Shown: piece by piece, positions 21,710 to 60,938 of the stretch
Position numbering within the stretch: position 1 is the first letter of the stretch
Layout of the letters: each line of letters begins with the position of its first letter
Assembly: GCA_900545405.1 (NCBI GenBank)
Contig: UQYT01000001.1
Coordinates: forward strand, 49,219-113,218
Direction: 5' to 3'
DNA: 64,000 nucleotides
DNA from: an uncultured Eubacteriales bacterium
GTDB lineage: Bacteria > Bacillota > Clostridia > Oscillospirales > Oscillospiraceae
Position numbers and translations under genes: made by a program
Notes under the pieces: model-generated
Database searches by the model: none
What the model was told of the DNA's origin: nothing
What the model saw: only the letters and a program-made list of their open reading frames with translations

Positions 21710-21736
21710 TTACTCGCTGACAGTGAGTGCAAGCAA

Positions 21737-21780: not shown

Positions 21781-21783
21781 GGT

Positions 21784-28234: not shown

Positions 28235-28248
28235 TTTCCTGCCCCCCC

Positions 28249-37215: not shown

Positions 37216-37244
37216 GTCCGGACCAGAGGTTAAAATACCACATT

Positions 37245-37590: not shown

Positions 37591-37597
37591 ATAAGCA

Positions 37598-37633: not shown

Positions 37634-38992
37634 TCAGTTGTACGCTGCGGCGAGGCGGATGTGGCTCCAGGTGCGGGTGTGCCAGCGCCAGAGGAAGAGC
37701 CCGGCGCGCAGGCACTCGTCGCAGGCCATGGCTATCCAGATGCCCTCGAGGCCGAGCCTGAGCGGGCCGGAGAGCAGCATTCCGCCGCCGAATGCGGTAA
37801 GCCAGGCGCTGATGACGCAGATGGTTATCGGGAAGCGTATGTCCCCACAGGCCTGGAGCGCGCGGCACATGACTATATTGACCGCCCTGCCCAGCTCCAG
37901 CGGTATCTCGATGAGCATGATGGTCTTTGCAAGCGCGATGACCCGCGCGTCGCTGGTGAAGATGCCGCAGAGCGGCTCCGCGAATATGTAGATGAGCACC
38001 GAGACCAGACCGGAAATGACTACGGAGGCGTACATCGTGCGCCGGACGCACTTGTCGGTCGCCTCGGTGTCCCCGCCGCCCATGTAGCGCGCGACGACGA
38101 CCTGCGCCGCCTGAGCCACGGCGGAGGCAAACATGTAGGAGAGCATGGCGAACATGTTGGCGTAGACGCGGGTGTTGATGACAAAGAGCTCAAACCTGTT
38201 GCAGACGGCCTGGATGCAGATCTGCGAGAGGTTGTAGGAGATGGACTCGCCGCCGGAGGGTATGCCGATGTGCAGCAGCCCCCGGAACTGCGTCTTCGGG
38301 AAGGGTTTCAGGCAGGAGACGGAGATCGCGCCCTTGCCGAAGTACCTGCGGAAGAGCAGCGCGATGACCACGACGCCGACGAGCCTGGAGAGGCCGCTGG
38401 AGATGGCCGCGCCCGCGACGCCGAGGGCTGGCAGACCGATGAGGCCGTTTATTAGCAGCGCGTTGCAGCCTATGTTCATGACGTTCACGAGGACGGATAC
38501 CAGCATCGTCTGCTTCATGAGCTGGCAGCTGCGGAAGAAGGCCGTGAAGGTCAGGTATACCGCCTGCAGCACCATACCGGCGCCGATGATGCGGATGTAG
38601 AGCACAGCCTCGTCGAATATCTCCTCGGGTACGCTCATCATGCGGTAGATGGGCCCGCAGAGGAACACCAGGATCGCGCTCACCGCGAGGCCGAAGATGA
38701 GATTCGCAAGCAGCGACACCGTGTAAGTCTCGCGCAGACGCTCCGTGCTCTTCGCGCCGAGATACTGGGAGATGAGTATCGTCGCCGCGGTGCAGATGAC
38801 CGAGAATACGATGAGCAGCAGGTTGACGATCTGGTTAGCGTTGCCGATGGCCCCGACCAGGTCCGGGTCATACCACCCGACCATGATCTGGTCCGCATTG
38901 CCGACCAGCATCTGCAATACCAGCTCAATAAAAATGGGCCACGTCAGGCTCAGAATGTTGTTTTCGTTCTTAACGGACTTGAGCTTCTCCAT
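37634..38992 (-). CDS. MATE-family multidrug/oligosaccharidyl-lipid efflux transporter.
   Basis: 12 transmembrane segments and two MatE repeats. Start set at MEKLK, which has a GGGGAG RBS. Confidence 0.85.
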   Translation of the reverse strand: MEKLKSVKNENNILSLTWPIFIELVLQMLVGNADQIMVGWYDPDLVGAIGNANQIVNLLLIVFSVICTAATILISQYLGAKSTERLRETYTVSLLANLIFGLAVSAILVFLCGPIYRMMSVPEEIFDEAVLYIRIIGAGMVLQAVYLTFTAFFRSCQLMKQTMLVSVLVNVMNIGCNALLINGLIGLPALGVAGAAISSGLSRLVGVVVIALLFRRYFGKGAISVSCLKPFPKTQFRGLLHIGIPSGGESISYNLSQICIQAVCNRFELFVINTRVYANMFAMLSYMFASAVAQAAQVVVARYMGGGDTEATDKCVRRTMYASVVISGLVSVLIYIFAEPLCGIFTSDARVIALAKTIMLIEIPLELGRAVNIVMCRALQACGDIRFPITICVISAWLTAFGGGMLLSGPLRLGLEGIWIAMACDECLRAGLFLWRWHTRTWSHIRLAAAYN

Positions 38993-39140
38993 ATTACTCC
39001 CCAACCAGAAATATTGCACAAAATTGGCATATGTAATTTAGCTAATTTATTATAGTGCCCGCCGCTGAAAAGTCAATCGGCAGAATTAACACAGTTTGGT
39101 TAGAGTAGAAAGACCCAAGTTATAAAAAATGATAGTGCAA

Positions 39141-39180
39141 TAAAACGCGTCTGCCGATTAATCTGCAGACGCGTTTGTAT
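39141..39180 (-). terminator. Terminator for the GH13 gene (minus strand).
   Basis: Stem AACGCGTCTGC-cgattaatc-GCAGACGCGTT with a T-run on the minus strand. Confidence 0.5.
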
Positions 39181-39188
39181 TGCTGTAG

Positions 39189-40877
39189 TTAGGTTTTATC
39201 AGCAGCTCGCAAAATGACCACCTGATATGGAGCAAGAATCAGACGCTCGCTGCTGTGCCAATCGGAATCCGGCACATTAGTCAAAATGAGTTCTGCTTTG
39301 CTTAGGTCCATGGGGAGCGATCTATTTGCTTTAACTTCACTGAAATTTGCCGCTATAAACCATGTTTCCCCTTCAAAATGCTTATAATATGCGAATATCT
39401 CCTTGTCTTCCGGCCAGATCAGCTCGACCTCTCCGTAAGGCATTATTGGATTGTCCTTGCGCAAGGCTATAAGCTTTTTATAGAAGTAGAAAACTGAGTC
39501 AGGGTCAGCGAGAGCCTTTTCCACGTTTATCTCTGGATAATCAGGGTTAAGCATTATCCATGGTGTTCCGCTGGTAAAGCCTCCATTTTTGCTGCCGTTC
39601 CAAGGCATAGGTGTTCTTGCGTTATCGCGGGCTTTGCGATGTATAGCGTCCCACATAAACTCCTCACCTGCACCAGTCCTGCGGCAGTTTTCTGCAAAAG
39701 TCAGGCTCTCTATGTCCCGGAGCTGACTTACGTCGGTCCAGGGCACGTTGACCATACCTAGTTCCTCGCCTTGGTAGACAAACGGCGTGCCGCGCAGAGT
39801 ATGCAAAACTGCTGCCAGCATTTTGGCGCATCTCATTCGATACTTGCCCGTTGTTCCAAAGCGAGACAGCGCTCTCGGCTGATCCTGATTCGACCAGAAC
39901 AGACCCAGCCAGCCGTCTTTGAGCTCCTTCTGCCACCTTGTGAGCCTTTCTTTGAGTTCAGGCAGCTCCCAAGGTCGGTAATACCATTTGCCAAGGGCCT
40001 GTCCATCCATGTCGATGTGCTCGAATGAAAACACGGCATCCAGCTCTCGCTTAGCTCCGGCTGTATACCTTTTGCCCTGCTCGGTACTGAGTGCGATACA
40101 TTCACCGACAGTGAAAATATCCTTATCCTTGTATACAGTCTCCGCCATCTCCTGAAGATATTCATGGATGGGATCAACGTCGCAGATATGTTCTACAGGA
40201 AAAACGTACCCGTTCATATCCGTCGGTCCAGAGGCATCCGGCAGTCCATCGGTCTTGCAAAGCAAATTAATTACGTCCATTCTGAAACCGTCGGCTCCCT
40301 TGTCCAGCCACCAGGTCATCATGTCGTATACGTCTTTTCGGACATTTGGATTGTGCCAGTTCAGGTCAGGCTGCTTTTTTGAGAAGAGATGAAGATAGTA
40401 CTCCCCTGTATGCTGATCATATTCCCACGCAGACGGAGTAAAGAACGAGGCCCAGTTGTTTGGCTCATGCCCATCTTTGCCCTCTGCCCAGATGTAGTAA
40501 TCTCGCTTGGGGTCATCCTTGCTGCTGCGGGAGCTTATAAACCACGGATGCTCGTCGGAGGTGTGGTTTACAACCAGATCCACAAGGATCTTTATTCCCC
40601 GTGAGTGCAGCTTGTCTCTGAGTTCCTCCCAGTCCTCCATGGTGCCGAAAATGTCCAGTATCTTCTGGTAGTCAGAAATATCGTACCCCATGTCATCGCC
40701 GGGAGACTCAAACACCGGCCCCAGCCATATGCCTCCGATGCCCAGGTCAGCAAGGTAATCGACCCTGTCGATGATGCCGCGCAGGTCACCTATGCCGTCG
40801 CCGTTCGAGTCTTGGAAGCTCCGTGGATATATCTGATAGAATACACACTCTTTCCACCAACGCCTTTCGAGCTCCAT
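39189..40877 (-). CDS. GH13 alpha-glucosidase (oligo-1,6-glucosidase / sucrose-isomaltase-like).
   Basis: Catalytic regions DLVVNHTSDEH, GFRMDVINL, EW and FSNQDQPR. Start set at the second Met, which has a GAGGTG RBS. Confidence 0.85.
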   Translation of the reverse strand: MELERRWWKECVFYQIYPRSFQDSNGDGIGDLRGIIDRVDYLADLGIGGIWLGPVFESPGDDMGYDISDYQKILDIFGTMEDWEELRDKLHSRGIKILVDLVVNHTSDEHPWFISSRSSKDDPKRDYYIWAEGKDGHEPNNWASFFTPSAWEYDQHTGEYYLHLFSKKQPDLNWHNPNVRKDVYDMMTWWLDKGADGFRMDVINLLCKTDGLPDASGPTDMNGYVFPVEHICDVDPIHEYLQEMAETVYKDKDIFTVGECIALSTEQGKRYTAGAKRELDAVFSFEHIDMDGQALGKWYYRPWELPELKERLTRWQKELKDGWLGLFWSNQDQPRALSRFGTTGKYRMRCAKMLAAVLHTLRGTPFVYQGEELGMVNVPWTDVSQLRDIESLTFAENCRRTGAGEEFMWDAIHRKARDNARTPMPWNGSKNGGFTSGTPWIMLNPDYPEINVEKALADPDSVFYFYKKLIALRKDNPIMPYGEVELIWPEDKEIFAYYKHFEGETWFIAANFSEVKANRSLPMDLSKAELILTNVPDSDWHSSERLILAPYQVVILRAADKT

Positions 40878-40887
40878 GCACTGCACC

Positions 40888-41934
40888 TCACTTTAGTATG
40901 ATCTCACGGCCTGCTGAAGCCGAGGCGTACATTGCACCTATGATACGCTGAACCTTGTAGCAATTCTCTGCGGAGGTTATTGGGATCTCGCCTTTTTGCA
41001 CGCAGTCTACAAAGTGCTGTATTTCGTTTCGGAAACCTTCCTTCCACGCGTCGTCTCTAACGAACAGGGGCGTAATATCTGCGCAATAGCCTTCTTCCTG
41101 ACCATAAATCACAAATGGATTGAGACTTGCTCCCTCCTTAGTCCCATATACCTTGAGATTAAAGTCCTCTTCCGGCCCATTTATTGCCCAGCTGACTGTC
41201 ACAGTCATGCTTTTTCCCTCGGCGAAGCGGACAAGCGCCACGGCAGTTTCCTCAACGTCCATGGGCCTGTCGGCAGGAGCCTCTGTGCCCCAGCTGCTCA
41301 GGCCTTTTGCCTTTGCATCTCCGAGACGGCTGTGTGTCACCGCGCTCACGGCGATCGGTTCAGGGCAGCCCATTAGGTACCAGGCGGTATCGATGGCGTG
41401 AACGCCGATATCAATGCCGGCACCGCCGCCTGAGAGAGACTTCTGCACAAACCAGCCGTTCGATGGGATACCGCGCCGTCTTATCCAGCGAACATCGGCG
41501 TGATAAATGTCACCCATCTTTCCCTGAGTCCGGCGCTCATTTATAAACATTGTCTCTGTCCTGAAACGGTTGAGCATACCCAGCATGAACGTCACACCGT
41601 TTTTCTGAGTCTCATCAAGGATCTCTTTTGCTTCAGCTTCGCTTGCTGCCATTGGCTTTTCAAGAAATATATTCTTCCCTGCCCTGGCGGCCTTCACTGC
41701 CATCTGGCAGTGAAGGTCGGTTCGCGTGCAGATTGATACGGCATCTATGTCTCCATGCCGAAGCAGTTCGTCGTAGTCAGAAAACGGCTCAGCGCCGACA
41801 GCATCTGCCAGAGCTTTCGCTTTCTCAGGTTTCCTGTCATATATTGCTGCTATTTTTACTCCGTCACACGCCTGAAAAGCGGGAATGTGAAACGTCTTGG
41901 CAACGAGTCCTGCGCCTATTATTGCAACTTTCAT
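40888..41934 (-). CDS. Gfo/Idh/MocA-family NAD(P)-dependent oxidoreductase (1 of 3).
   Basis: Rossmann motif KVAIIGAGLVAKTFH, EKP motif and the C-terminal GFO alpha/beta domain. Confidence 0.85.
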   Translation of the reverse strand: MKVAIIGAGLVAKTFHIPAFQACDGVKIAAIYDRKPEKAKALADAVGAEPFSDYDELLRHGDIDAVSICTRTDLHCQMAVKAARAGKNIFLEKPMAASEAEAKEILDETQKNGVTFMLGMLNRFRTETMFINERRTQGKMGDIYHADVRWIRRRGIPSNGWFVQKSLSGGGAGIDIGVHAIDTAWYLMGCPEPIAVSAVTHSRLGDAKAKGLSSWGTEAPADRPMDVEETAVALVRFAEGKSMTVTVSWAINGPEEDFNLKVYGTKEGASLNPFVIYGQEEGYCADITPLFVRDDAWKEGFRNEIQHFVDCVQKGEIPITSAENCYKVQRIIGAMYASASAGREIILK

Positions 41935-41947
41935 AGTTTACTCCACA

Positions 41948-42976
41948 TCAAAGGATCTCACTGAGCTGCACAACTCTCTTCTCTTTTGCGGAGAGCAGAA
42001 CTGCGGCCGCAATGGCAAGACTGTTGAGGTTGTCCTCAAGCGTTGGCAGGTCAGTCTGCTCACCGCCCAGGGCAAGATGCAGATCGTGCAGCACACCTTT
42101 ACGGTCTGTGCCCGGAAACTCACCGCATCCCAGCTCTGGTATTTTACCTGGGTCATCCGCTGCGGGGCTTATGTCCAGCCCCTTGCCGGAGAGCCATGTG
42201 ACAAGGCCCTTGCTGCATTGTATCTGCCAGTTACCTTGAAATTCCGTGGGCGCGCCGACAGAACTCATATGGCTGGAAAACTGCACCTTTGCGTCGTTTT
42301 CAAACTCTATCGTTATAAACAGCGACTCAGGCCCGCGTGTCACCGCCCACTCCGGGTTCCAGCCCAGAGCATATACGGATTTGGCATTCGAGCGAGTGAG
42401 AAACCTGAACATGTCAAAGTGGTGTATGCACACCTCATATATCTGCATGCAAACCTGTTTGCCGCGCCAACCCTGTATGTTCCAGATGTGCTCCTTGGGG
42501 TCGGTCGTCATGCCTGCGCGATAGTCAAGCTCGATAAACTCAAGCTCTCCTAACCCGCCGCCCTCTATGCCGCTCCGGACGCGCCATAGTTCCTCGCGGT
42601 AGCGGTAATTGTGACTCACGAATACGCGTTCTTTTCTGCCGCGCATCCACATTGCAAACTCCTTTGCCTCATCCATGTCGTCGCACAAAGGTTTTTCAAT
42701 GAGAACGTTCTTCCCCGCCTCGACGGCCTTTTTGGCAAACTCGATATGCGCATAGTGAGGCATCACGATTATCACAAGGTCGGCATCAAGTTTAAGCGCC
42801 TCGTCATAATCGGTGAAGCATGCCGAATCAGGAAGAGCCCACTTCTCTTTGGCTTTTGCCAAGGTTTCCTCTGTTCTCACGACAAGTGCTGTGAGTTCAA
42901 AGTTAGGGTCATCTCGTAGATACTGTACCCAGCTCTCTCCCCAGTAGCCGTAACCCACCTGTATTACTTTGATCAT
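41948..42976 (-). CDS. Gfo/Idh/MocA-family oxidoreductase (2 of 3).
   Basis: Motifs IKVIQVGYGYWG and NVLIEKPL; C-terminal GFO domain. Confidence 0.85.
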   Translation of the reverse strand: MIKVIQVGYGYWGESWVQYLRDDPNFELTALVVRTEETLAKAKEKWALPDSACFTDYDEALKLDADLVIIVMPHYAHIEFAKKAVEAGKNVLIEKPLCDDMDEAKEFAMWMRGRKERVFVSHNYRYREELWRVRSGIEGGGLGELEFIELDYRAGMTTDPKEHIWNIQGWRGKQVCMQIYEVCIHHFDMFRFLTRSNAKSVYALGWNPEWAVTRGPESLFITIEFENDAKVQFSSHMSSVGAPTEFQGNWQIQCSKGLVTWLSGKGLDISPAADDPGKIPELGCGEFPGTDRKGVLHDLHLALGGEQTDLPTLEDNLNSLAIAAAVLLSAKEKRVVQLSEIL

Positions 42977-43002
42977 TGCGTACTCCTTTCAGTGCGCAGC
43001 CA

Positions 43003-44154
43003 TTACAGCTCTTCCAGCGGTATGGGCTCAAAGCTGGTCTTGAGATCAATGGCTCTGCCGGTCCTTGCAGACTCATAGGCAGCTCCGATGATCTCGATTA
43101 CATGTCTCGCGTGCTCAGCAGTGCCGTAGGCAGGCTTACCGCCCTGTGCCCACTCGGAGAGCTGATTTATGTCCTCGAATATGTGGGACTCGCCAAGCGT
43201 GACCTGATGGTCATTCAGGTGCGGGAGGCCCATATTGGCACGAACAAAATTAAGATCGAGTTTAGTCGGGTCATAGAGCTGTATCTCGCCGTTCTTGCCA
43301 ACGATCTTGCCATCCATAATGCGGCCCTCGGTGCCGAATGTGATCGTTCCAAAGCCGTTATAGTTTCCAAAGTCGCCCTTGAGAGAGGTATATACTACTC
43401 CGTAGAAAGCATCGCCAAAGTCCAGGATCATCTGAGTGGAGTCGTCAACCTCGGACTGGATCACCCCGCCGTCATACTCAAATTCCTTTACCCTCTGGCC
43501 GGAAAAAGCAGTGACTCTCTTTGCAGGCCCGTATATGCCGGTCATGGCATGGAGCGCATAAACAGTGCAGTCCCAGATGGGCCCGCCAGCGGGCAGACGG
43601 AAGTACCAGGTCGGGTCTATTTTCTCCATGCCGTTGCCAAAGTCACGGTTGGGCTGCCAGCAGTGCCAATAGAGAACGCCCTCGGAACCGCCTATTGTCC
43701 AGCTGGGGATTCCTATCTCGCCTGTTAGGATGGCTTTACGCATTCGCCTGAGTGCGGGAGAGGTCATCTGGCCGGGAGAAGATACGAGCTTTACGCCGTA
43801 CTTTTCAGCCTCTTCTATCATTTCCGTTGCCTCTTCGGCAGTAAGGCACATGGTCTTGTTGAAGTGGACATGCTTTCCTGCACGAATTGCCTTCATTCCC
43901 TGCTCAAAATGGACGCCGATGGGAGATGCAAGAGTAACCAGCTCAACATTCGGATCGGCCAGCATCTCGTCGTAGTCCTCATAGTATTTGGGAACATTAA
44001 ACTTTTCTGCAATGTACTTCGCGCGCCCGGGGACGGGGTCCATTACCGCCGCTGTATAGACGAGCTCGCACTCATCGGGAAAAACCGTGTGCTGGCAGAC
44101 GGACTGTATGCCGGTGGAACCACAGCCGGCAACACCGATACCCATTTTTTTCAT
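43003..44154 (-). CDS. Gfo/Idh/MocA-family oxidoreductase (3 of 3). Longer form resembling NAD-dependent glycoside-oxidising enzymes.
   Basis: Motifs MGIGVAGCGSTG and GKHVHFNKTM; 383 aa. Confidence 0.85.
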   Translation of the reverse strand: MKKMGIGVAGCGSTGIQSVCQHTVFPDECELVYTAAVMDPVPGRAKYIAEKFNVPKYYEDYDEMLADPNVELVTLASPIGVHFEQGMKAIRAGKHVHFNKTMCLTAEEATEMIEEAEKYGVKLVSSPGQMTSPALRRMRKAILTGEIGIPSWTIGGSEGVLYWHCWQPNRDFGNGMEKIDPTWYFRLPAGGPIWDCTVYALHAMTGIYGPAKRVTAFSGQRVKEFEYDGGVIQSEVDDSTQMILDFGDAFYGVVYTSLKGDFGNYNGFGTITFGTEGRIMDGKIVGKNGEIQLYDPTKLDLNFVRANMGLPHLNDHQVTLGESHIFEDINQLSEWAQGGKPAYGTAEHARHVIEIIGAAYESARTGRAIDLKTSFEPIPLEEL

Positions 44155-44172
44155 TTATAAAACCCTCCGATC

Positions 44173-45159
44173 TCAGTACTTTTCAACCAGCTTCTGCATA
44201 AAGCTGACAAACTGACGTGTGCATTTTCTGTCGAACTCGTGCATTTCTTCAAGGCAGTTATAGTGCTGCTCAGGGAGTATAAATGCAGGCTCGGCCATGA
44301 GTATCATATTTTCCTTGCGCTTGGCCTTCTCGCATATGGCCTTCATTATCACGTCAAAGTCCATGATGCCTTCGCCAAGGCAGCAGCCCTTGAAAATCAT
44401 GGGCATATCCTGCCACAGATGCTCGAAAACCGGATTGTTTATAACCTTGAAATCCTTGAAGTGCGCAGCAACGGCCCAGGGCGCCAGATAGTCCACATCC
44501 GCCATCGGGTCGCAGCATATTACAGCGCCGTTCCCTATGTCAAACATTCCGCCGATGTTGGGGTGATCTATATCCTCAAGTATCTCGGCGATTTCTTTGC
44601 CCGTGAAATCACAGTGATTTTCATAGGCCATCATGATATCCGTACCTTCAAGCGCCTTGCCGAGCTCCAGCATATTCGCCTTGACAAATGCCTTGACTTC
44701 GTTGAAGCTGACGTCTTTGTTGTATCTGCTGTACTTGACCTCGAGCTTCCCATAGCCTCCTCCAAGCGTGTTGGCCCCGAAAATCTGGCATATTTCAATT
44801 ATTTTATCAAGGTATTTCCTTGCCGCCGCCGGCTCCATGCCCATTTCACCCGTGACAGGATGCTTGAGTCCGGCCAGGCTGAAAGCGGGAATGCAATACA
44901 CCACGAAGTGCACGTCGGCTTCTTTTGCCAGGGCGGCCATCTCCCTGACATAGCCCATATCGGAGAATTCAAGGTAACCAGCGTCGTACTTTTCGCCTTC
45001 CGGTATTTTGGCCACCGGCATCATCGAAAGCGAGTGCGCGTCCATGCGCTTGCACTCCTCGATATACCAGACGAAAGACTCCCTACCGGGTTTAAGGCTT
45101 TCAGGGCACCTGTTTGCAAATTGCTGAAAACCAATTTTAAAATTGAAACTGTTATTCAT
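44173..45159 (-). CDS. Sugar phosphate isomerase/epimerase (xylose-isomerase-like TIM barrel).
   Basis: AP_endonuc_2/XylA-like TIM barrel with a metal-ligand pattern E...D...H...E. 328 aa. Confidence 0.8.
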   Translation of the reverse strand: MNNSFNFKIGFQQFANRCPESLKPGRESFVWYIEECKRMDAHSLSMMPVAKIPEGEKYDAGYLEFSDMGYVREMAALAKEADVHFVVYCIPAFSLAGLKHPVTGEMGMEPAAARKYLDKIIEICQIFGANTLGGGYGKLEVKYSRYNKDVSFNEVKAFVKANMLELGKALEGTDIMMAYENHCDFTGKEIAEILEDIDHPNIGGMFDIGNGAVICCDPMADVDYLAPWAVAAHFKDFKVINNPVFEHLWQDMPMIFKGCCLGEGIMDFDVIMKAICEKAKRKENMILMAEPAFILPEQHYNCLEEMHEFDRKCTRQFVSFMQKLVEKY

Positions 45160-45196
45160 AATAATAGGATCCTCCTTTTTGCTGCTGAAAGGAAGC

Positions 45197-46039
45197 TCAA
45201 CCCTTCACAGCACCTGAAACCGTCATGGCTCTCTCCACCTGCGAACTGAACAGAGTGTAAACTAGCACAGTGGGAATGCTGGCGATGACCATCGTTGCGC
45301 CCATGGCACCCCAGTCAGTCGTATATTCTCCCTGGAAGAAGAGCAGACCCAACGGCAGTGTCTTCAGCTCCTCGCGAGTCAGCAGGATGAGCGCCAGATT
45401 ATACTCGTTCCAAACGCTCATGAATATGAAAATTGAAACTGTCGCTATGGCTGACTTTACATTTGGAACAATTACCCTGAGAAAACAGGTTAATATTGAC
45501 GCACCATCTATGCAGGCTGATTCCTCAAGCTCAAACGGCAGGCTGCGCATATAGCCGTAGAGAACCATTATTGAAAACGAAAGGTTAAATGCAGTGTAAG
45601 GTACTATGACAGCCCAAAGGGTATTGTTTATGTGCAGGTCTCGCACGAGTACGGCTATGGGAATCATGATGCACTGCAGCGGCAGGAACAGGCCAATGAG
45701 CGTGAGCATACGGAGAAAACTCTGGCCCTTGAAGCGCATCCTGGCAGTTGCATAGGCAAACATGGTAGCGAATACAACAACGAAAATTATGACCGCAGCG
45801 GTAACTTTTACGCTGTTGAAGAAGTAAGTCGGCAGGTTGAATGTGTTCCATGCCTTGGCATAGTTTTCTACCCTGAGAACAGTCGGAGGACCAAATGGGT
45901 TAGTTGCAAATATCTCGAGGTTGTCCTTAAAGGAATAGAACAGCATCCATATTAGAGGGTACAGGTTTATGACCGCGTAGATATAGAGGATCACCTTAAA
46001 TAATAAGGTCCCAACTGTCAGTTTCTTGTGATGTCTCAT
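45197..46039 (-). CDS. Carbohydrate ABC transporter permease (MalG-like).
   Basis: EAA motif ESACIDGASILTCFLRVIVP. Six transmembrane segments. Confidence 0.85.
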   Translation of the reverse strand: MRHHKKLTVGTLLFKVILYIYAVINLYPLIWMLFYSFKDNLEIFATNPFGPPTVLRVENYAKAWNTFNLPTYFFNSVKVTAAVIIFVVVFATMFAYATARMRFKGQSFLRMLTLIGLFLPLQCIMIPIAVLVRDLHINNTLWAVIVPYTAFNLSFSIMVLYGYMRSLPFELEESACIDGASILTCFLRVIVPNVKSAIATVSIFIFMSVWNEYNLALILLTREELKTLPLGLLFFQGEYTTDWGAMGATMVIASIPTVLVYTLFSSQVERAMTVSGAVKG

Positions 46040-46055
46040 TCTGCGCAGCCCCTTG

Positions 46056-46937
46056 TCAGTAAACTATGCGCTCTCGCGCTACCAGTCTGTTTATAATGAT
46101 GGACACTATGAGGCACTGGACGACCAGCATAACAGCCGAAGTACAGCCATAGCCATAGTTGCCTATCTTGAAAGCTGAACGGTACATAAGGTAAGTCAGC
46201 GTATAAGTGGCAGTGCCAGGACCGCCGCCGGTCATTATGTTCATGCTGGCAAAAGCGTTAAGACCGCCGGTTATAGCAATTATAAGGCAGTACTTGTATG
46301 TCTCCTGCATGAGCGGCATGGTTATCTTTATGTGTGCCTGCATTTTGGTGCAGCCGTCGATTCGGGCGGCCTCGAAATAGTGGTCGGGAATCGAGTTTGC
46401 AGCAGACAAGAGCAAAATAAACTGATAACCCGTGAACTGCCAGATGTTGACCATGGCTATGGCTATTATTGCAGCATGCTCATCACCAAGCCAGTTTTGC
46501 CTGTACGAGATGCCCAGTACTTCAAACAGCTTGTTTATAAGACCGTTGTCAGCATTATACATAGAGAGCCAGAGCTGCGAAACAACTGTGATGGAGAGGA
46601 CTGCGGGTATGTAATAGGAGATCCTGAAAAACTTCTTTTCTATTTTTCCGGAGTGCTTAACCGCAAAAGCCAGCACAGTTGCAATTGGTATCTGAATGCA
46701 GGCCTGTAATGCCGCAAATATTAGGCCATTTTTTAGGCCGGTGTAGAATATCGGGTCTTTGAAAAGCCTGATATAGTTGCTAATCCCGTTGAATTTAGCC
46801 GGATTTAATCCATCCCATTGAGTAAAGCTGTGTACTACCAGCACAAACATGGGATACAGGACCATAACCGTTATGAGTATCATGGTGGGAGCAATGAGGA
46901 AGATTATGACCCGCTTATTCCCAAGATACTTTTTCAT
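46056..46937 (-). CDS. Carbohydrate ABC transporter permease (MalF-like).
   Basis: EAA motif EAARIDGCTKMQAHIKITMP. Start set at MKKYLG, which has an AAAGGGG RBS. Confidence 0.85.
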   Translation of the reverse strand: MKKYLGNKRVIIFLIAPTMILITVMVLYPMFVLVVHSFTQWDGLNPAKFNGISNYIRLFKDPIFYTGLKNGLIFAALQACIQIPIATVLAFAVKHSGKIEKKFFRISYYIPAVLSITVVSQLWLSMYNADNGLINKLFEVLGISYRQNWLGDEHAAIIAIAMVNIWQFTGYQFILLLSAANSIPDHYFEAARIDGCTKMQAHIKITMPLMQETYKYCLIIAITGGLNAFASMNIMTGGGPGTATYTLTYLMYRSAFKIGNYGYGCTSAVMLVVQCLIVSIIINRLVARERIVY

Positions 46938-47015
46938 GGAATGGACACCCCTTTCCCTATCCATAAGGAGAGGCCATGCGGCCTCTCCTTAAGATTTGGT
47001 CGAAAATCTGCTTTC

Positions 47016-48353
47016 TTACTCACCAAGTACCAGAGCGATGCTCTCGATAAACTCCTCAGGCGTCATAACACCCGCAAGCAGGCTCTGGGTGCCTTCGCCG
47101 AGTACGGTATAGAGCTCCATGTTTCCGCCGCTGCCGGCAAGAACGGTGGTGCTTGTGATCTTGGGCATCCACTCGCCCAGCTTTGCCATCATTGCGGGAG
47201 GCTCAACCTCAACGGGCTTGTCGCACTGAACAGCGACGGTGGCAGCTCCGCGCTGGGTGTAGTTGTACTCTGCATACTTCTCAGCAAGGTAGCACGCAAC
47301 TTCGACGGCGACGTCGTAGTTCTCGCTCCAGGCGGACACACCAAGTCCGGCAGCAGTGCCGGAACCGCCAACGAAGGCGTACTGGGAAGTCTCGACATCC
47401 TCAGCGGTGGCGGCGGGAATGGGGATCCAGTCGGCTTTGTCTCCGAGGTATTCGTCAGTGGTACTGATCTCCCACTGGCCGTTGAGGAACATGGCAGCCT
47501 CACCGTTGTACCAGAGGTTAGTAGCCTGCTCATAGTTCAGAGTGGTAACGCCAGCGGGGAAAGCGCCGGCGGCGGCAAGACGCTCTAGATCCTGTGCAGC
47601 CTTGAGATAGCCTTCGTCACGGATGCTGGTTGTCCCCTGCTGCAGACCGGTCAGGCCCTCAGGGATGTAACGGGTAACGAGCGCATCATAGAAGGTGTTG
47701 CAGATCCACTGCTCCTTACCGAAGATCGGCAGAACAGTAATGCCCTTGGCCGTGAGCTCCTCGGAGGCGGTTACCCACTCATCAATGGTGGTAGGAATGG
47801 CAACACCGTTCTCCTCAAAAATGGCTTTGTTAACAAACAGCAGAGCGACCTCAGTGCTGGTATAGGGCAGAGTGTAGATCTTGCCGTCGGTGTGATAGAG
47901 CTTGGAGTAAGCAGCAGGCTGAACCTTGTCAAAGAAGCCGTTTTCTTCGATGTCAGCCGTAAGATCTTTCACAGCACCGGCCTGGACCATGGAGTTTATG
48001 AGGTCCGTGCCCTGAAGCGAGAAGATATCCGGCAGATCACCGGTGGCGACCATGGACTTCAGCTTCACCCCGTCGTCTGCGGGCATGGCATCCAGCTCAA
48101 GTGTTACCCAAGGCATGTCCTCCTTGAGGCACTCGACCGCATAGTCGTAGGGCAAAATAGTGTCGTCATCAGAATAGCGAACATAGATGCGAAGCGTTAC
48201 GGGCTCGTGCTCGTCACCACCGGTGGCTTCACTGGTCTGCGCGGCTCCGGTGTCCTGTGCCGGGGCGTCGCTGGGCTGCTGATCCGTGCTCCCACACGCC
48301 GCCAGGCTGAATATCATCGCAAGCGCGAGCATAAGTGCCAAAGCTTTTTTCAT
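47016..48353 (-). CDS. ABC transporter substrate-binding lipoprotein (carbohydrate, SBP family 1).
   Basis: Lipobox LALAMIFSLAACGST; 445 aa. Confidence 0.85.
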   Translation of the reverse strand: MKKALALMLALAMIFSLAACGSTDQQPSDAPAQDTGAAQTSEATGGDEHEPVTLRIYVRYSDDDTILPYDYAVECLKEDMPWVTLELDAMPADDGVKLKSMVATGDLPDIFSLQGTDLINSMVQAGAVKDLTADIEENGFFDKVQPAAYSKLYHTDGKIYTLPYTSTEVALLFVNKAIFEENGVAIPTTIDEWVTASEELTAKGITVLPIFGKEQWICNTFYDALVTRYIPEGLTGLQQGTTSIRDEGYLKAAQDLERLAAAGAFPAGVTTLNYEQATNLWYNGEAAMFLNGQWEISTTDEYLGDKADWIPIPAATAEDVETSQYAFVGGSGTAAGLGVSAWSENYDVAVEVACYLAEKYAEYNYTQRGAATVAVQCDKPVEVEPPAMMAKLGEWMPKITSTTVLAGSGGNMELYTVLGEGTQSLLAGVMTPEEFIESIALVLGE

Positions 48354-48602
48354 TCTCCTCTGCTCCTCAATTTATGAATTTCATACGGTTGTATGATACA
48401 ATTAGCATAGAGTAATAAGGCATAGATGTACATGGAATTTGCGAATATGTCTTGGAAAAAACGAACCTAATTTCTCGTATATTGTATAATTTGTGAAAAT
48501 ACTAAAATTTATAGTCTTGCAATTATGCATATAAACAATTTTGAGCAAAAATCTGATTTGCTATATTAAATGTGTATCTACTACATCTTCATTGTATTTA
48601 TG

Positions 48603-48631
48603 TTGACAAGCAATTATCAATACATTATCAT
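48603..48631 (+). promoter_or_regulatory. Strong sigma-A-like promoter candidate: -35 TTGACA, 17-nt spacer, -10 TATCAT. Upstream of the deoC-like/GH2 operon in an AT-rich 350-bp control region.
   Basis: Read from the sequence. The region is much more AT-rich than any coding sequence in the window. Confidence 0.4.
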
Positions 48632-48708
48632 ACAACTAGTGCCAGCCGAGGTGACAACTTTGTCTGACTCAATACAAGAAAGGAGCATGCATCCTTCGCG
48701 GTGTAGCA

Positions 48709-52507
<3,799 letters not shown>

Positions 52508-52533
52508 TACGTCAGACACGGGAGTGTTACAGT

Positions 52534-53313
52534 ATGGGCTTTGATTTTACTGCAAAAGTAGACCCAAATGCGTCCAGAGCGATATACCTCCAGCTTCAAG
52601 ACATAATAGAAGACCAAATCAACACAAGAAAGCTGCGCCACGGTGAAATGCTGCCATCAGAAAATGAACTGTGCGACGCATATCATGTGAGCCGCACCAC
52701 GGTCAGGCAAGCATTCCATGAATTAGAGCAACAGGGAATGATCGTTCGCAAACAGGGCTTGGGCACTTTTGTGGCCGAGCAAAAGGTTGCACGCAGCCTT
52801 GGCAACCTATACAGCTTTACTGAGGATATGAAAAAAATCGGTATGACACCATCGTCAAAGATCCTCAGTTACAGGCTGGTGCGAAAAGATGAGTGCTCGT
52901 CTCCGTTGCAAAGGTTTAAGTCAGAGCGTCTGATAGAGGTCGTCAGGCTGAGGCTGGCCAATGACACCCCGCTGTTGCTGGAAAAGACGTTCCTATCCGT
53001 AGACCTCTGTCCAGATCTATCCTGGGAGAGGCTTGAGAATAATGCGCTTTATTCCATTCTGTCGGAGCATTACGGCCTGAAACCACGCCGGGCAGTTGAG
53101 ACTTACGAGGCAATTATCATGACAGAGGAGGAAAGCAAGCTGCTCGACTGCGATAAGGGGCTGCCTGCTTTCCTGCTGAAGCGCTCCACCTGGGACCAGA
53201 ATGAGGTCATGATAGAATACACTACTTCGATTATGCCAAGCACCAGGTCAATGTTTGAAATAAATATGTACGAGGATAATGTGAAGATTTCTAGAAAAAG
53301 CACTATGCACTAA
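52534..53313 (+). CDS. GntR-family transcriptional regulator, HutC subfamily (UTRA effector domain).
   Basis: HTH LPSENELCDAYHVSRTTVRQAFHELEQQGMIVRKQGLGTFV and a C-terminal UTRA-like domain. Confidence 0.85.
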   Translation: MGFDFTAKVDPNASRAIYLQLQDIIEDQINTRKLRHGEMLPSENELCDAYHVSRTTVRQAFHELEQQGMIVRKQGLGTFVAEQKVARSLGNLYSFTEDMKKIGMTPSSKILSYRLVRKDECSSPLQRFKSERLIEVVRLRLANDTPLLLEKTFLSVDLCPDLSWERLENNALYSILSEHYGLKPRRAVETYEAIIMTEEESKLLDCDKGLPAFLLKRSTWDQNEVMIEYTTSIMPSTRSMFEINMYEDNVKISRKSTMH

Positions 53314-53340
53314 CTGGAACTAAACTGAAGGAGGAGGGGC

Positions 53341-55083
53341 ATGAGGACAAAATCTTTTCACAAAAAACTTACGGTTTCTTATATCTACCTCCTCATTGCG
53401 GTTGCAGTTATAATGCTTTTGGGCCTTGTGCTCACCGTGTGGATCAGTGTGCTGCCCAGTATGAGAATTACCATGCAGAGCAAAGTGAATGAGCTTGGGA
53501 ACCGTCTGGATGAAGAGTGCTCTTACCTCATGACCGCCATTGACTCAGCTTTTTTAAACATCAACAGCATTGACAGCACAATCCTGTTTTCAAGCGATAC
53601 GGATAATCTGAAAAAGTATAATGCTATCAATAATCATCTCTATTTGACAAGGCAGATGTATGATGGCGTAGATATGTTTTTCCTATTCGATACAGAAGGA
53701 AAAGTGTATGCCGACAGCTCCATTCTTGAGGCTGAACTGAGTTCCAGCTTCGATACGTCTTTGCATGAAGTTCTCGAGTCTGAGCATGGCAGAACCTATA
53801 GTTTTGGGCTGTATGATCCATCTGATGAAGACGGCTTGGATCCGGTTATACTCGTTGGAAAAATGCTCAGATACATTGACGACATACAAAAAATAGGTTA
53901 TCTTTATGCAATCGCAGATGACAGTGTGTTAGACAAGCTTTATGAGGAGCAAATGATCTCTGAGGGACAGAGAATCTATTTGCTCGACTCCGAGGGTGTA
54001 GTTCTGTCGTCCACGGAAAAAGATGAACTGGGTACCGTTCTTGATATCTCGGGAGATGGAACCCGTGTTCTTACTGTAGCTGATGGCGGCCTGTGGCTTC
54101 GACAGCAAAAATATGTGCCTTCTCTGCATGCAGAGCTGATACTGCTGATCCCTGCGCTAGAACTTTATAAGAGCAGCGGAATATCAGTGATCGTCGTTTT
54201 GGCAGCCCTCCTCTTCGGACTGGCCTTTGCAATCTACCAGGCAGGGATTATAACAAAAAGGACACTCTCTCCCCTGACGGCCCTCACAAATACAGCGAAC
54301 GAAATAGCCGATGGAAATATGCAGGTCCGTTGCGAGGAAAGCTCTGAGAGCACAGAAATAGCCGTCCTGTCAAAGAGCTTCAACAGTATGCTTGACAGAA
54401 TAGAGCAGCTCATTGCAAGCCTTGATGCGGTACACAAAGAGAAGCTCAGGACAGAGCTTGCGGTGCAGCAGAACAAAATCCAGCCGCACTTTCTCTATAA
54501 TGTTTTGAACACTATAAGTGCTCTGTGCCAGCTTGAAGATAATGAGGATGCCTGCCGTATTTCTCATATGACCGCCGAATACTACCGTAGTGTTTTGAGT
54601 GATGGGCAGGATATCGTGACGATTGGGCAGGAACTTGAGCATGTGCAGCTTTACTTCGAAATAGCCTCACACAGCCGCAGTGACGCTATTGTCTTTTCTC
54701 TTCAGTGCGACCCTGAAGCAGTCATTCTGCCCATACCTAAGATGACAATACAGCCTTTGGTTGAAAATGCGGTTAAGCACGCATTTCTCAGCCCACGAGG
54801 CAATACCATTGACATCTCTATATCCGTAAGTAGGAAGAGCCAGGTCAGAATTTGCGTCAAAGACAATGGCATAGGGATGAATCTCAGCAGTTTTGACGAC
54901 ATCATTTCCGGCAGGTGTGAAGGCCACTTTGGGCTTTATAGTGTCAAACGTTGCCTGGAGCTTGTGTGCGGCAAGGATTATTCTTTCAGTGCCGAGAGCG
55001 AACCAGGCAAAGGAACTGCAATCATCATTGAGTATGATGCAGGTAATATTTCAAAAGATACGGGAGCCGGCAGTCCTACATAA
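53341..55083 (+). CDS. Sensor histidine kinase, YesM-type (two TM segments flanking an extracellular sensor, HAMP, His_kinase, HATPase_c).
   Basis: H-box QPHFLYNVLNTIS; N/G-boxes NAVKHA, DNGIGM and GLYSV. Confidence 0.85.
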   Translation: MRTKSFHKKLTVSYIYLLIAVAVIMLLGLVLTVWISVLPSMRITMQSKVNELGNRLDEECSYLMTAIDSAFLNINSIDSTILFSSDTDNLKKYNAINNHLYLTRQMYDGVDMFFLFDTEGKVYADSSILEAELSSSFDTSLHEVLESEHGRTYSFGLYDPSDEDGLDPVILVGKMLRYIDDIQKIGYLYAIADDSVLDKLYEEQMISEGQRIYLLDSEGVVLSSTEKDELGTVLDISGDGTRVLTVADGGLWLRQQKYVPSLHAELILLIPALELYKSSGISVIVVLAALLFGLAFAIYQAGIITKRTLSPLTALTNTANEIADGNMQVRCEESSESTEIAVLSKSFNSMLDRIEQLIASLDAVHKEKLRTELAVQQNKIQPHFLYNVLNTISALCQLEDNEDACRISHMTAEYYRSVLSDGQDIVTIGQELEHVQLYFEIASHSRSDAIVFSLQCDPEAVILPIPKMTIQPLVENAVKHAFLSPRGNTIDISISVSRKSQVRICVKDNGIGMNLSSFDDIISGRCEGHFGLYSVKRCLELVCGKDYSFSAESEPGKGTAIIIEYDAGNISKDTGAGSPT

Positions 55084-55112
55084 TCATATCAGCGGTCAGG
55101 CGGTGTTAACAT

Positions 55113-56234
55113 ATGCTGAAAGCTCTCATAGCGGACGATGATGAGATATTTGCTAAATATGTAAGGAAATGCGTTGACTGGGAGAGCCAGTGTACAGAGC
55201 TGCTTGGACGCGCAAGGAATGGCAGAGAGGCCATAAAAATGATCTCCGACATAAATCCCGATATAGTTATAATGGATGTCGAGATGCCCGAGATGAGCGG
55301 CCTGGAATGCATAGAGCAGATCCGCACAAGCTGCAGCCAGTGCCAAATCATACTCGTAACCGGCCATGACAAGTTTAAATACGCCCAACTGGGTGCTAGA
55401 TTCGGTATAACAGATATTTTACTCAAGCCGGTCGCCAAGACCAGCCTCGACATGGCTCTGCAGCGCACAGTAAATGAGTACTGGATGAACCGCCTATCTC
55501 AGCTGGCAGCCCGAAACCTCATGGATACATCTTATGTCGTCGATATATCTGCTGTTATGCAGGAGGATGCGCCTGAACAGACTGTTCTTGGACTGAGCAA
55601 GAAGTTGAGGTCGAGGCTAAACAACAACTCCCTTGACGATATACACGATATAATAATGCAATATGTGCATTGCATTGAAAACCACGGTATATCACAGGGA
55701 AGGAATATCTGGCTTTATTCCTTCGTGGCTCTGGTGTGTCTGGACAAGCTCCAGAGTATGGGTGGTGAAATGGTACCTCCTTTTGACAATAAACTCAATC
55801 TTCTCAGCCTAGTGCGGGACGGGATGCTCAAGGGTGAAGTAGCAAATGTGCTTCTTGACTTATGCGTCAAAGCGGGTAGAGCTTCAAAAGCTCCGTCAAA
55901 GGGCCGACAGACGGCTGATGAAATTTACGGCTTAATAATGGAAAATTACCACGACCCTCATTTCAGTGTGGTTGATCTTGCTAACATGATGCATTTTCAT
56001 GAGGGGTATGTACGCAGGGTTTTCAAAGAGGCATTTGGCAAGTCGCCGAACGCAGCACTCAAGGATATACGCATGGCGGAAGCGAAGAGACTGCTGACTG
56101 AAGGGCAGCTGCAAATACAACAGGTATCTCGTCAGGTTGGCTTTGACGATGCTTCATACTTCAGCAAGTGCTTCAAGAGTTATTTCGGCTATTCTCCATC
56201 TGAAATTTTCTATAGAACCAATACAGAAGAATAA
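55113..56234 (+). CDS. Response regulator with an AraC-type HTH output domain (YesN-like).
   Basis: Receiver ALIADDDE, IMDVEMPEMSG. C-terminal AraC HTH. Confidence 0.85.
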   Translation: MLKALIADDDEIFAKYVRKCVDWESQCTELLGRARNGREAIKMISDINPDIVIMDVEMPEMSGLECIEQIRTSCSQCQIILVTGHDKFKYAQLGARFGITDILLKPVAKTSLDMALQRTVNEYWMNRLSQLAARNLMDTSYVVDISAVMQEDAPEQTVLGLSKKLRSRLNNNSLDDIHDIIMQYVHCIENHGISQGRNIWLYSFVALVCLDKLQSMGGEMVPPFDNKLNLLSLVRDGMLKGEVANVLLDLCVKAGRASKAPSKGRQTADEIYGLIMENYHDPHFSVVDLANMMHFHEGYVRRVFKEAFGKSPNAALKDIRMAEAKRLLTEGQLQIQQVSRQVGFDDASYFSKCFKSYFGYSPSEIFYRTNTEE

Positions 56235-56236
56235 GT

Positions 56237-56277
56237 AAACGTCCGAAGATCTATTACGGTCTGCGGACGTTTTAATT
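56237..56277 (+). terminator. Terminator candidate after the response regulator gene. Stem AAACGTCCG ... CGGACGTTT.
   Basis: Inverted repeat with a long loop, followed by TTAATTT. Confidence 0.4.
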
Positions 56278-56284
56278 TATCCTA

Positions 56285-56322
56285 TTGACATTTAGCACAC
56301 TACTAGTTATTATTCAGTAGTG
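56285..56322 (+). promoter_or_regulatory. PadR promoter with an overlapping operator. -35 TTGACA, 17-nt spacer, -10 TATTAT, all embedded in the inverted repeat CACTACT-N11-AGTAGTG.
   Basis: Read from the sequence. The palindrome arms flank the -10 hexamer, the classic arrangement for PadR autorepression. Confidence 0.45.
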
Positions 56323-56344
56323 CTTGACAGAAAGGAGTGACTCT

Positions 56345-60168: not shown

Positions 60169-60180
60169 GCCTCTACCCCC

Positions 60181-60921: not shown

Positions 60922-60938
60922 TTTATTCTCATGCCTCC

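Follow-up and report, generated by a model that had tools for sequence, protein, structure and literature searches.

A strain-variable carbohydrate-utilisation island, very probably acquired horizontally, in an uncultured human-gut Oscillospiraceae lineage

Introduction

How did a compact set of sugar-utilisation genes of foreign composition come to lie between two native genes of a gut bacterium, and what would it do there? The question is raised by a stretch of 64,000 nucleotides from an uncultured Eubacteriales bacterium (assembly GCA_900545405.1, contig UQYT01000001.1), called the window hereafter, in which a first-pass annotation made from the letters alone had singled out a low-G+C block reaching from a MATE exporter gene to a PadR gene. 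The evidence assembled here makes it very likely that this block is a horizontally acquired, non-self-mobile and strain-variable accessory island, which is a known kind of object. It represents a textbook case, and human-gut metagenomes supply both its empty and its occupied alleles. Biochemistry offers the more useful lead, namely an uncharacterised TIM-barrel family accompanied by three Gfo-family oxidoreductases, one of them related to DgpA.

Composition and limits of the island

Alignments with relatives lacking the block set its edges at positions 39,098 and 56,281 of the window, a length of about 17.18 kb. The coordinates first proposed, 39,020–56,320, had located it correctly and were about 40–80 bp too wide at each end. 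Three contigs (L001, L120 and L122) could be aligned with the window through position 39,097 and again from 56,282, and another (L026) through 39,059 and from 56,283. The G+C content of 1-kb segments ranged from 0.44 to 0.57 across 39,001–56,000 and from 0.58 to 0.69 in the rest of the window, with overall values of 0.491 for the island and 0.620 for the flanks. At 200-bp resolution the step spanned about 200 bp at either edge, the drop lying at 38,800–39,000 and the rise at 56,300–56,500. The early description of sharp intergenic edges next to terminators was borne out by this switch and by the strong hairpins found at both ends.

Genes were called from how far G+C at the third codon position departed from that at the second. 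The mean G+C at third codon positions (GC3) was 0.573 for the 13 island genes (0.49–0.68) and 0.844 for 44 flank genes (0.70–0.92), the two ranges being disjoint (Mann–Whitney U = 0, p = 5.6e-8). The island model was preferred by all 13 island genes, and the flank model by 43 of the 44 flank genes, in a leave-one-out codon-model test. Tetranucleotide z-scores, taken in 8-kb chunks, correlated with the pooled flanks at 0.34–0.41 in the island and at 0.88–0.92 outside it. The claim of a low-G+C block from MATE to PadR was thus confirmed in the G+C, codon and tetranucleotide profiles, none of which was uniform.

The composition of the island was itself uneven. The leftward operon had a G+C content of about 0.52 and the rightward operon of about 0.47, and the richest gene was that of the binding protein at 47,016–48,353 (G+C 0.573, GC3 0.68); from this unevenness, the cassette may be a mosaic or may have been unevenly ameliorated. 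Two further candidate islands, at 11–14 kb and 17–22 kb (11,001–14,000 and 17,000–22,000 of the window, G+C 0.56–0.59), were rejected on their GC3 of 0.80–0.89 and host-like codon usage. These dips are due to low G+C at codon positions 1 and 2 and do not correspond to foreign DNA.

Empty and occupied alleles

An empty junction, in which MATE and PadR are neighbours, was present in eight contigs (L001, L026/L117, L099, L100, L101, L104, L120 and L122). In L001, positions 1–1399 corresponded to window positions 57,680 down to 56,282, and positions 1431–5602 to 39,097 down to 34,940. L026 followed the window from 59,556 down to 56,283, continued with 36 bp and resumed from 39,059 down to 30,631. 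Two of the empty alleles belonged to the window's own species: L120, with flanks 96.3% and 99.0% identical in nucleotides, and L122, with 98.2% and 97.1%. Four others, found in a metagenome scan (L099, L100, L101 and L104), belonged to another species. The presence/absence check that the first-pass annotation had called for therefore showed that synteny of the block breaks down in some relatives, even within one species.

Occupied alleles of the window's species were found in at least nine independent assemblies at about 98% nucleotide identity (L080–L085 and L096–L098, the last three from human gut). Since L120 and L122 are empty and L096–L098 occupied, the island is strain-variable within this species. 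The same right junction was also occupied in two further species-level lineages (L086 and L088). The flanks of L086 were 96.8–98.8% identical to those of the empty L026, so that a second species is polymorphic for the island too. A whole sugar-utilisation pathway therefore differs between strains of this uncultured Oscillospiraceae lineage, a strain-level metabolic difference of the kind by which gut niches come to be partitioned.

A step of 13 points in G+C is, in sequence derived from metagenomes, also the classic mark of a chimera, and the block could in principle be an artefact of assembly or binning that joined two organisms. This is extremely improbable: the junctions, or a continuous alignment, recurred at about 98% in the at least nine assemblies, obtained from different samples and pipelines, and recurred again at 84–85% identity in the two further lineages.

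Anatomy of the insertion

The elements around the two edges are listed below.

37,244–37,592, plus strand: rnpB, RNase P RNA class A (Rfam RF00010, 262 bits)
37,634–39,019, minus strand: native MATE efflux gene (Pfam MatE, 3.5e-50; GC3 0.88)
39,049–39,076, minus strand: intact MATE promoter-like site, TTGACT-16-TATAAT (11/12 matches), 21 bp left of the insertion point, in sequence shared with the empty alleles
39,143–39,176, minus strand: terminator of the leftward operon (17-nt inverted repeat I9, −28.2 kcal/mol, z −8.0), with a T-run next to it on the minus strand
56,240–56,273, plus strand: terminator of the rightward operon and final element of the island (−19.4 kcal/mol, z −4.7), followed by a T-run
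56,285–56,322, plus strand: native, intact PadR promoter, 4 bp right of the island, TTGACA-17-TATTAT (56,285–56,313), overlapping the palindrome CACTACT-N11-AGTAGTG
56,345–56,674, plus strand: native PadR-family regulator (Pfam PadR, 6.5e-19; GC3 0.79; gene call in L080)

The empty alleles read ...AACACAGTTT, then about 31 bp, then CTATTGACATTT.... A spacer of 31–36 bp carrying the motif GAGAAAATTTGAAA was shared by four lineages in their empty alleles (L001, L026, L100 and L120/L122), and the occupied allele lacks it. This conserved spacer without a counterpart in the occupied allele indicates that the empty state is ancestral and that the insertion is derived and replaced the spacer; its presence also means that precise excision cannot explain the empty alleles. 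The insertion point lies between the promoter-like sites of MATE and PadR, both of which are undisturbed, and the PadR promoter with its palindrome was conserved in every occupied and empty allele.

The right junction, made up of the terminator, the T-run, a few bases and the TTGACA of PadR, stood at one position in the window, L086 and L088. In L086 and L088 the hairpin of the end terminator had not moved, and its stem differed in sequence while keeping its pairing. A shared junction with diverged, still-pairing terminators argues for one ancestral insertion followed by divergence.

It may be asked whether the block was instead ancestral to the clade and repeatedly deleted, the empty sites being secondary losses and the low G+C the mark of an old transfer or of a local mutational bias. 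The occupation of the same junction in three species-level lineages would fit such a history, and the loss of accessory DNA by recombination with empty alleles is common. We consider it improbable, however, as deletion cannot regenerate a spacer shared by the empty alleles of four lineages. Moreover, L026 and L100 suggest an outgroup with the empty spacer, GC3 is still about 0.27 under that of the host after the supposed long residence, and in Flavonifractor and other more distant relatives the neighbourhood is not conserved at all.

How the block could have entered was approached through its mobility signals. The first-pass annotation had proposed looking for short direct repeats at the two boundaries: a scan of 38,900–56,500 revealed neither direct nor inverted repeats linking the ends, and only a GTTT microhomology was seen by eye. 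No tRNA or tmRNA gene was present in the window, and an Rfam scan found rnpB alone. Its statement that no integrase or transposase lies inside proved correct, as all 13 products were assigned by Pfam to other families and none was an integrase, relaxase, transposase or phage protein. Searches of plasmids (PLSDB) and phages with the two island halves (blastn in 'distant' mode) gave no plasmid match, and a lone 120-bp phage match (74% identity) was regarded as noise. The marks of an integrase-mediated island, whether an integrative and conjugative element (ICE), an integrative and mobilisable element (IME) or a prophage-like element, are an integrase at one end, att repeats or a target-site duplication, and a tRNA, tmRNA or small-RNA target; they were not found here.

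These negative results bear on the idea that the block is what is left of an ICE, an IME or a prophage after decay, or the cargo of a transposon that lost its recombinase. The sharp intergenic edges speak for it, as do the position of rnpB 1.5 kb away and an insertion sequence (IS) active nearby in another strain (L121). The lack of mobility and phage genes, end repeats, tRNA or tmRNA genes and plasmid or phage matches speaks against it, and module homologues in six other contexts likewise have no adjoining mobility genes; this origin is very improbable. The proximity of rnpB, announced at 1.4 kb and measured at 1.5 kb from the island start, is real and has no bearing on the insertion, because the native MATE gene intervenes between rnpB and the island, and MATE adjoins rnpB in the empty-site relatives too.

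An integration hotspot receiving alternative cargo was also considered and found to be unsupported: in the more distant relatives L005, L006, L036, L105 and L123 the genes upstream of MATE are rearranged and of native composition.

For the horizontally acquired island we propose the following history. A 13-gene module from a Clostridia lineage of about 50% G+C would have inserted once, by illegitimate recombination, into the short intergenic stretch between the divergent MATE and PadR promoters, replacing about 31 bp. The locus would since have behaved as a presence/absence allele that can be gained, lost or exchanged.

Divergence of the alleles and spread of the cassette

In the right half of the island, the alleles of the window and L086 were 82.6% identical, those of the window and L088 80.7%, and those of L086 and L088 80.8%. 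The flanks of the window and L088 were 91–93% identical, and those of the window and L086 80–82% from PadR to orf471 and 92.6% in the oxidoreductase genes beyond. The three alleles were thus nearly equidistant, and their hosts were not. At third codon positions the identity between the window and L088 was 56–65% from DeoC to the response regulator, against 77–89% in the adjacent PadR, HAAS-domain and orf235 genes. This drop in silent-site identity falls exactly at the island edge, which is not expected of a block ancestral to the clade. It implies that at least one lineage did not inherit the island allele together with its flanks.

We infer that homologous recombination, acting through the conserved core flanks, spread the island. 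This is the simplest mechanism because it accounts for the mismatch between alleles and flanks, the coexistence of empty and occupied sites in each of two species, and the lack of mobility genes. Such exchange, inside a species or with related ones, would introduce the cassette, swap one version for another or return the site to its empty state. Divergent alleles of the cassette, which has no mobility genes, occupy one chromosomal site in several species. Capsule and sugar-utilisation loci are examples of accessory loci exchanged by homologous recombination in core flanks, a kind well known in naturally recombining Firmicutes. The island resembles them in its foreign composition, its intergenic position between core genes, its presence/absence within a species, its divergent alleles and its lack of mobility genes. 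To our knowledge no such recombination dynamics have been described for the uncultured gut Oscillospiraceae that host it.

Several points weigh against this account of acquisition and spread. Between the window and L086 there was no step at third codon positions, the divergence of island and flanks being similar, so that vertical co-divergence is possible for this pair; the same similarity favours an ancestral block. The left junction is known from the window's own species, L086 and L088 giving the right junction only. The recombination argument is built on 1–3 kb flanks of metagenome contigs, L088 being a single contig of 10.6 kb. Finally, the close homologues of the module are all metagenome proteins and no donor lineage can be named from them.

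Homologous modules at other sites

All 13 genes were present in L090 (GCA_964535405.1), with the TIM-barrel gene and one oxidoreductase gene swapped in order and a glycoside hydrolase family 2 (GH2) enzyme 57% identical in amino acids. Its flanks are unrelated to those of the window and lower in G+C (0.47, against 0.53 for the module). In L091 (0.49 for the module, 0.52 for the flanks) and L092/L093 (0.54 and 0.53) the composition of the module matched its surroundings. In L089 and L094, whose hosts are related to that of the window, the module was found at two other chromosomal sites with a G+C content of 0.57–0.61. Even at protein identities as low as about 57% the enzyme set stayed together as a conserved unit. 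The foreign composition, the empty sites in relatives and the homologous modules in unrelated contexts agree with the horizontally transferred module that had been proposed at the outset. From this distribution the cassette appears as a travelling unit among gut Clostridia, and lineages of about 50–54% G+C are a plausible source.

Some arrangements deserve description. In L089 the G+C-richer module lies directly beside a homologue (85% nucleotide identity) of the first 2-oxoacid:ferredoxin oxidoreductase gene set of the window (27,329–30,248). Positions 1–11,683 of L092/L093 hold four Gfo/Idh/MocA genes and, in place of GH2, a Khk/PfkB-type kinase gene after DeoC; on its opposite side the module is bordered by a glucuronide/hexuronate cluster. 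This arrangement hints at a kinase plus an aldolase as the downstream end of the pathway.

Gene content of the island

The 13 genes form two divergent operons. All calls were checked with Pfam and NCBIfam, and the families first assigned were upheld for every gene, apart from the ATPase of the importer. The leftward operon, beginning with its promoter-proximal gene, comprises:

47,016–48,353, minus strand: extracellular sugar-binding protein of the ATP-binding cassette (ABC) importer (Pfam SBP_bac_1, SBP_bac_8)
46,056–46,964, minus strand: ABC sugar permease (Pfam BPD_transp_1); public calls (L080) give 293 residues, so that the start is probably at 46,937
45,197–46,039, minus strand: ABC sugar permease, 280 residues (Pfam BPD_transp_1)
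44,173–45,159, minus strand: xylose-isomerase-like TIM-barrel enzyme, 328 residues (Pfam AP_endonuc_2, 1.3e-16)
43,003–44,154, minus strand: divergent Gfo/Idh/MocA oxidoreductase, 383 residues (Pfam; weak PDB matches to 4gqa, 4e-17, and to scyllo-inositol/L-glucose dehydrogenase 5ya8, 1.5e-14)
41,948–42,976, minus strand: divergent Gfo/Idh/MocA oxidoreductase, 342 residues (Pfam; weak PDB matches to 3e82, 4e-15, and DgpA2 9m37, 5e-12)
40,888–41,934, minus strand: DgpA-like Gfo/Idh/MocA oxidoreductase, 348 residues (Pfam; DgpA 7xr9)
39,189–40,886, minus strand: GH13 alpha-glucosidase of the oligo-1,6-glucosidase type (Pfam Alpha-amylase, 1e-157)

The rightward operon comprises:

48,709–49,425, plus strand: DeoC deoxyribose-phosphate aldolase (NCBIfam TIGR00126 equivalog, 190.8 bits against a cut-off of 117.3)
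49,532–52,507, plus strand: LacZ-type beta-galactosidase of family GH2, 991 residues (Pfam Glyco_hydro_2_N, Glyco_hydro_2_C, Bgal_small_N)
52,534–53,313, plus strand: GntR/HutC-family regulator with a UTRA effector domain (Pfam GntR, UTRA)
53,341–55,083, plus strand: YesM-type sensor histidine kinase (Pfam dCache, HAMP, His_kinase, HATPase)
55,113–56,234, plus strand: YesN-type response regulator with an AraC-type DNA-binding output (Pfam Response_reg, HTH_18)

The island brings together what characterises a carbohydrate-utilisation locus: a binding protein with two permeases, GH13 and GH2 enzymes, and a GntR regulator with a kinase and a response regulator. The Pfam scan detected no ABC ATPase domain among the 13 products, so that the complete importer, ATPase included, of a Gram-positive carbohydrate locus is not present; presumably the importer borrows a shared MsmX-like ATPase of the host. 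The announced ABC importer is therefore limited to its binding protein and permeases. Likewise, the self-contained carbohydrate locus with its own regulators stands as regards the clustering of transporter, carbohydrate-active enzymes and regulators, and falls short by an ABC ATPase and a sugar kinase. The matches of the binding protein in the PDB were weak and uninformative, all of them oligosaccharide binders.

The GH13 enzyme probably starts at 40,877, as public gene calls have 562 residues. Its best PDB match was the Bacillus cereus oligo-1,6-glucosidase 1UOK (679 bits, residues 6–560), it was about 54% identical to named homologues, and it scored above the cut-off of NCBIfam PRK10933, a TreC-like subfamily, and below that of the TreC equivalog. 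These matches place it in the oligo-1,6-glucosidase/TreC-like subfamily, its substrate specificity being a prediction.

The nearest solved relative of the 348-residue oxidoreductase was DgpA (7xr9, 1.1e-45), with an end-to-end alignment and a likeness at the family level only. Its N-terminus is the Rossmann-type MKVAIIGAG and carries no signal peptide; the protein is therefore cytoplasmic, and we assume the same of the remaining island enzymes. The polysaccharide use suggested at first was not retained: small glycosides or oligosaccharides taken up intact are the probable substrates, given that the Pfam-annotated enzymes carry no carbohydrate-binding module and the inspected oxidoreductase no signal peptide.

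The TIM-barrel enzyme matched nothing in an NCBIfam scan, nor in a PDB sequence search at E ≤ 1e-3. Its AlphaFold model had a predicted local distance difference test score (pLDDT) of 92, and Foldseek compared it with generic xylose-isomerase-like barrels only (11–17% identity, TM-scores of 0.55–0.64). The top score, 0.64, was that of the 2-hydroxy-3-keto-glucal hydratase AtHYD; ketose 3-epimerases, IolI, DgpB/C (rank 36, TM-score 0.54) and a 3-keto-glucoside lyase were also among the fold matches. All these relatives being generic, no specific reaction can be assigned. The family is tiny, with 37 word-indexed matches in 5.8 billion proteins, and a HMMER scan of 1.84 billion cluster representatives returned 38 relatives at E ≤ 1e-30 with one full-length close cluster. 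By these counts the enzyme belongs to a small subfamily without a characterised member.

In the rightward operon, the position of DeoC, divergent and beside the binding-protein gene, was conserved among module variants, and the protein was 70% identical to that of the L092 variant. The GH2 open reading frame (ORF) can be extended to a TTG at 49,403, while public gene calls begin at 49,532; a homologue (P0001) also has 991 residues and is 97% identical.

Regulatory elements

Two elements were identified in the divergent intergenic region:

48,389–48,401, strand not assigned: perfect palindrome TTGTATGATACAA, an exact match, 35 bp upstream of the binding-protein gene
48,603–48,631, plus strand: promoter of the DeoC–GH2–regulator operon, TTGACA-17-TATCAT (11/12 matches)

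The palindrome core TTGTAT..TACAA was preserved in five module variants (the window, L086, L090, L091 and L092); L087 was uninformative, its aligned stretch beginning downstream of the site. Within the window alone the palindrome (TTGTATNATACAA) was not enriched (38/100 shuffles), and its weight comes solely from its conservation across variants. At the rightward promoter, TTGACA and ACATTAT.ATACA were invariant in the 6/6 aligned variants, and the −10 region looks like a half-site of the palindrome. The palindrome and the rightward promoter are likely targets of the GntR/HutC repressor, the palindrome being its candidate operator.

Proposed function

From its gene content the locus is predicted to take up small alpha-glucosides or beta-galactosides and to have an oxidoreductive, DgpA-like branch. 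In the proposed scheme, the YesM/YesN-type two-component system would sense an extracellular sugar and, together with the GntR/HutC repressor, which probably binds the TTGTATGATACAA palindrome, would control the two divergent operons. Through the leftward operon a small glycoside would be imported by the ABC system on a borrowed host ATPase and processed in the cytoplasm by the oligo-1,6-glucosidase-type GH13 enzyme, the three NAD-dependent Gfo/Idh/MocA oxidoreductases and the TIM barrel. The chemistry would most likely be a C3-oxidation, followed by isomerisation, elimination or reduction, acting on alpha-glucosides that are poor substrates for hydrolases. The rightward operon would contribute the LacZ-type beta-galactosidase and the DeoC aldolase.

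Loci controlled by YesM/YesN with a CUT1-family ABC importer occur in Bacillus, Paenibacillus and Clostridia. The island shares with them the Cache/HAMP/His_kinase sensor, the regulator with AraC output, the binding protein, the two permeases, cytoplasmic hydrolases and the lack of a dedicated ATPase; unlike them, it adds a GntR/HutC regulator, three Gfo/Idh/MocA enzymes, the novel TIM barrel and DeoC. The ycjM-V locus of Escherichia coli combines a GH13-type phosphorylase, an ABC importer, the TIM-barrel epimerase YcjR and the Gfo-family reductase YcjS, and its proposed logic is the conversion of unusual glycosides to glucosides through 3-keto intermediates. Compared by gene set and not by sequence, both loci unite GH13, an ABC importer, a TIM barrel and a Gfo-family oxidoreductase, whereas the island has three oxidoreductases, DeoC and GH2 and lacks a GH65 enzyme and a beta-phosphoglucomutase.

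The C-glycoside deglycosylation system DgpA-DgpB/C is found in the gut strain PUE and in Dorea (PMC9939296, PMC8563793, PMC11239390), DgpA being the glycoside 3''-oxidoreductase of strain PUE (PMC9939296, PMC11239390). The island resembles it in its gut host and in the clustering of a full-length DgpA homologue with a xylose-isomerase-like TIM-barrel gene. It differs in having a single TIM-barrel gene, without a sequence match to DgpC, and no gene for the small DgpB subunit, and its GH13, GH2 and ABC sugar importer point to sugars and not to polyphenol C-glycosides. In Bacteroides thetaiotaomicron, BT2156–BT2160 form a 3-keto-disaccharide route with two Gfo-family dehydrogenases, an IolE-like TIM barrel and a dedicated regulator; the route acts on the alpha-glucosides trehalose, leucrose, palatinose and maltitol, is periplasmic, with Tat or signal peptides, and relies on a 3-keto-glucoside hydrolase of the DUF1080 type (PMC8121099). 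It is the best analogy, and its substrates fit the oligo-1,6-glucosidase-type GH13 of the island. Unlike it, the island enzymes look cytoplasmic and DUF1080 is missing, and the island oxidoreductases are not members of the BT_2158 and BT_2159 families (25–33 bits against NCBIfam cut-offs of 650–750).

We tentatively suggest, at somewhat less than even confidence, that the locus works by a chemistry like that of BT2156–BT2160 or DgpABC, without being a member of either. A bolder and rather doubtful proposal is that the core of the module (the ABC importer, the DgpA-like and the two other Gfo/Idh/MocA enzymes, the TIM barrel, GH13 and the divergent DeoC) represents an undescribed cytoplasmic 3-keto glycoside route of human-gut Clostridia, serving hydrolase-resistant dietary alpha-glucosides or plant glycosides and moving between gut species as a single recombining cassette. 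If true, a chemistry discovered only recently would be found to reach into the cytoplasmic pathways of gut Firmicutes. Counting against a 3-keto-glycoside function are the family level of the likeness to DgpA, the equally poor resemblance of the TIM barrel to all its solved relatives, ketose 3-epimerases included, and the absence from the island of a DgpB-like partner and of a DUF1080 hydrolase. DeoC, moreover, is by its match a bona fide aldolase with no obvious role in such a route.

Alternatively, the oxidoreductases and the TIM barrel might catabolise a monomer released by GH13 and GH2 (an inositol-like compound, a polyol or a rare sugar) toward a kinase/aldolase end. All three oxidoreductases weakly match IolG and inositol dehydrogenases, IolI and ketose 3-epimerases are among the fold neighbours of the TIM barrel, and DeoC is conserved beside the module, with the Khk/PfkB kinase next to it in L092. 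However, homologues of IolD, IolB and IolC are missing, the island version of the window has no kinase, and the best characterised relative of the 348-residue oxidoreductase is the glycoside 3-oxidase DgpA. This alternative is possible and, on the whole, unlikely.

Flanking genes and host

The left flank is core chromosome, with genes for a NAD-dependent DNA ligase, YunB, a Met-gamma-lyase-family protein, a Mur ligase, rnpB and MATE. The rnpB gene was 93–97% identical in nucleotides in the empty-site relatives L001, L002 and L026. MATE orthologues were 86–97% identical in amino acids in Scatomorpha-like Oscillospiraceae. A scan with one genome per species gave a Eubacteriales metagenome-assembled genome as the best match (97%), followed by Candidatus Scatomorpha (89–92%) and by Flavonifractor, Lawsonibacter and Intestinimonas (about 65–72%). 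These matches place the host among uncultured human-gut Oscillospiraceae related to Candidatus Scatomorpha and Flavonifractor. An exact-sequence look-up of the MATE protein gave no match, and the start of the ORF probably differs from that of public gene calls.

The gene at 36,549–37,211, between the Mur ligase gene and rnpB, is of ambiguous strand: its plus-strand ORF resembles DUF6198 (3e-8) and its minus-strand ORF has no match. It showed the least host-like codon usage of the flanks (GC3 0.66–0.70) and was the sole flank gene with a negative codon-model score. In L121, from the same species and another strain, an insertion of about 1.5 kb with a transposase-like ORF (793–2294) interrupts the MATE gene at about 38,264–38,272 of the window; an IS element is therefore active beside the island site and lies outside the island. 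The assembly of sample ERZ1106963 breaks at this same point of MATE (L122, L128).

The right flank contains PadR, a HAAS-domain protein, two unknown genes and a 2-oxoacid:ferredoxin oxidoreductase cluster. The HAAS-domain gene (56,661–57,395) has an in-frame stop at codon 44 in the window (E to stop, 56,790–56,792). It is split in L081 also and intact (244 residues) in L080 and L082–L086, and the stop is probably a strain-specific pseudogene mutation or a sequencing error. In L086, of a UMGS893-like species, orf471 and the oxidoreductase genes are separated by an additional DUF3788 gene at positions 20,052–20,465. The window lacks this gene at the corresponding point (59,556/59,563), and the right flank thus shows a second, small difference of presence/absence. 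The window itself carries two paralogous sets of 2-oxoacid:ferredoxin oxidoreductase genes, one at 27,329–30,248 and the other at 59,614–62,021 and beyond.

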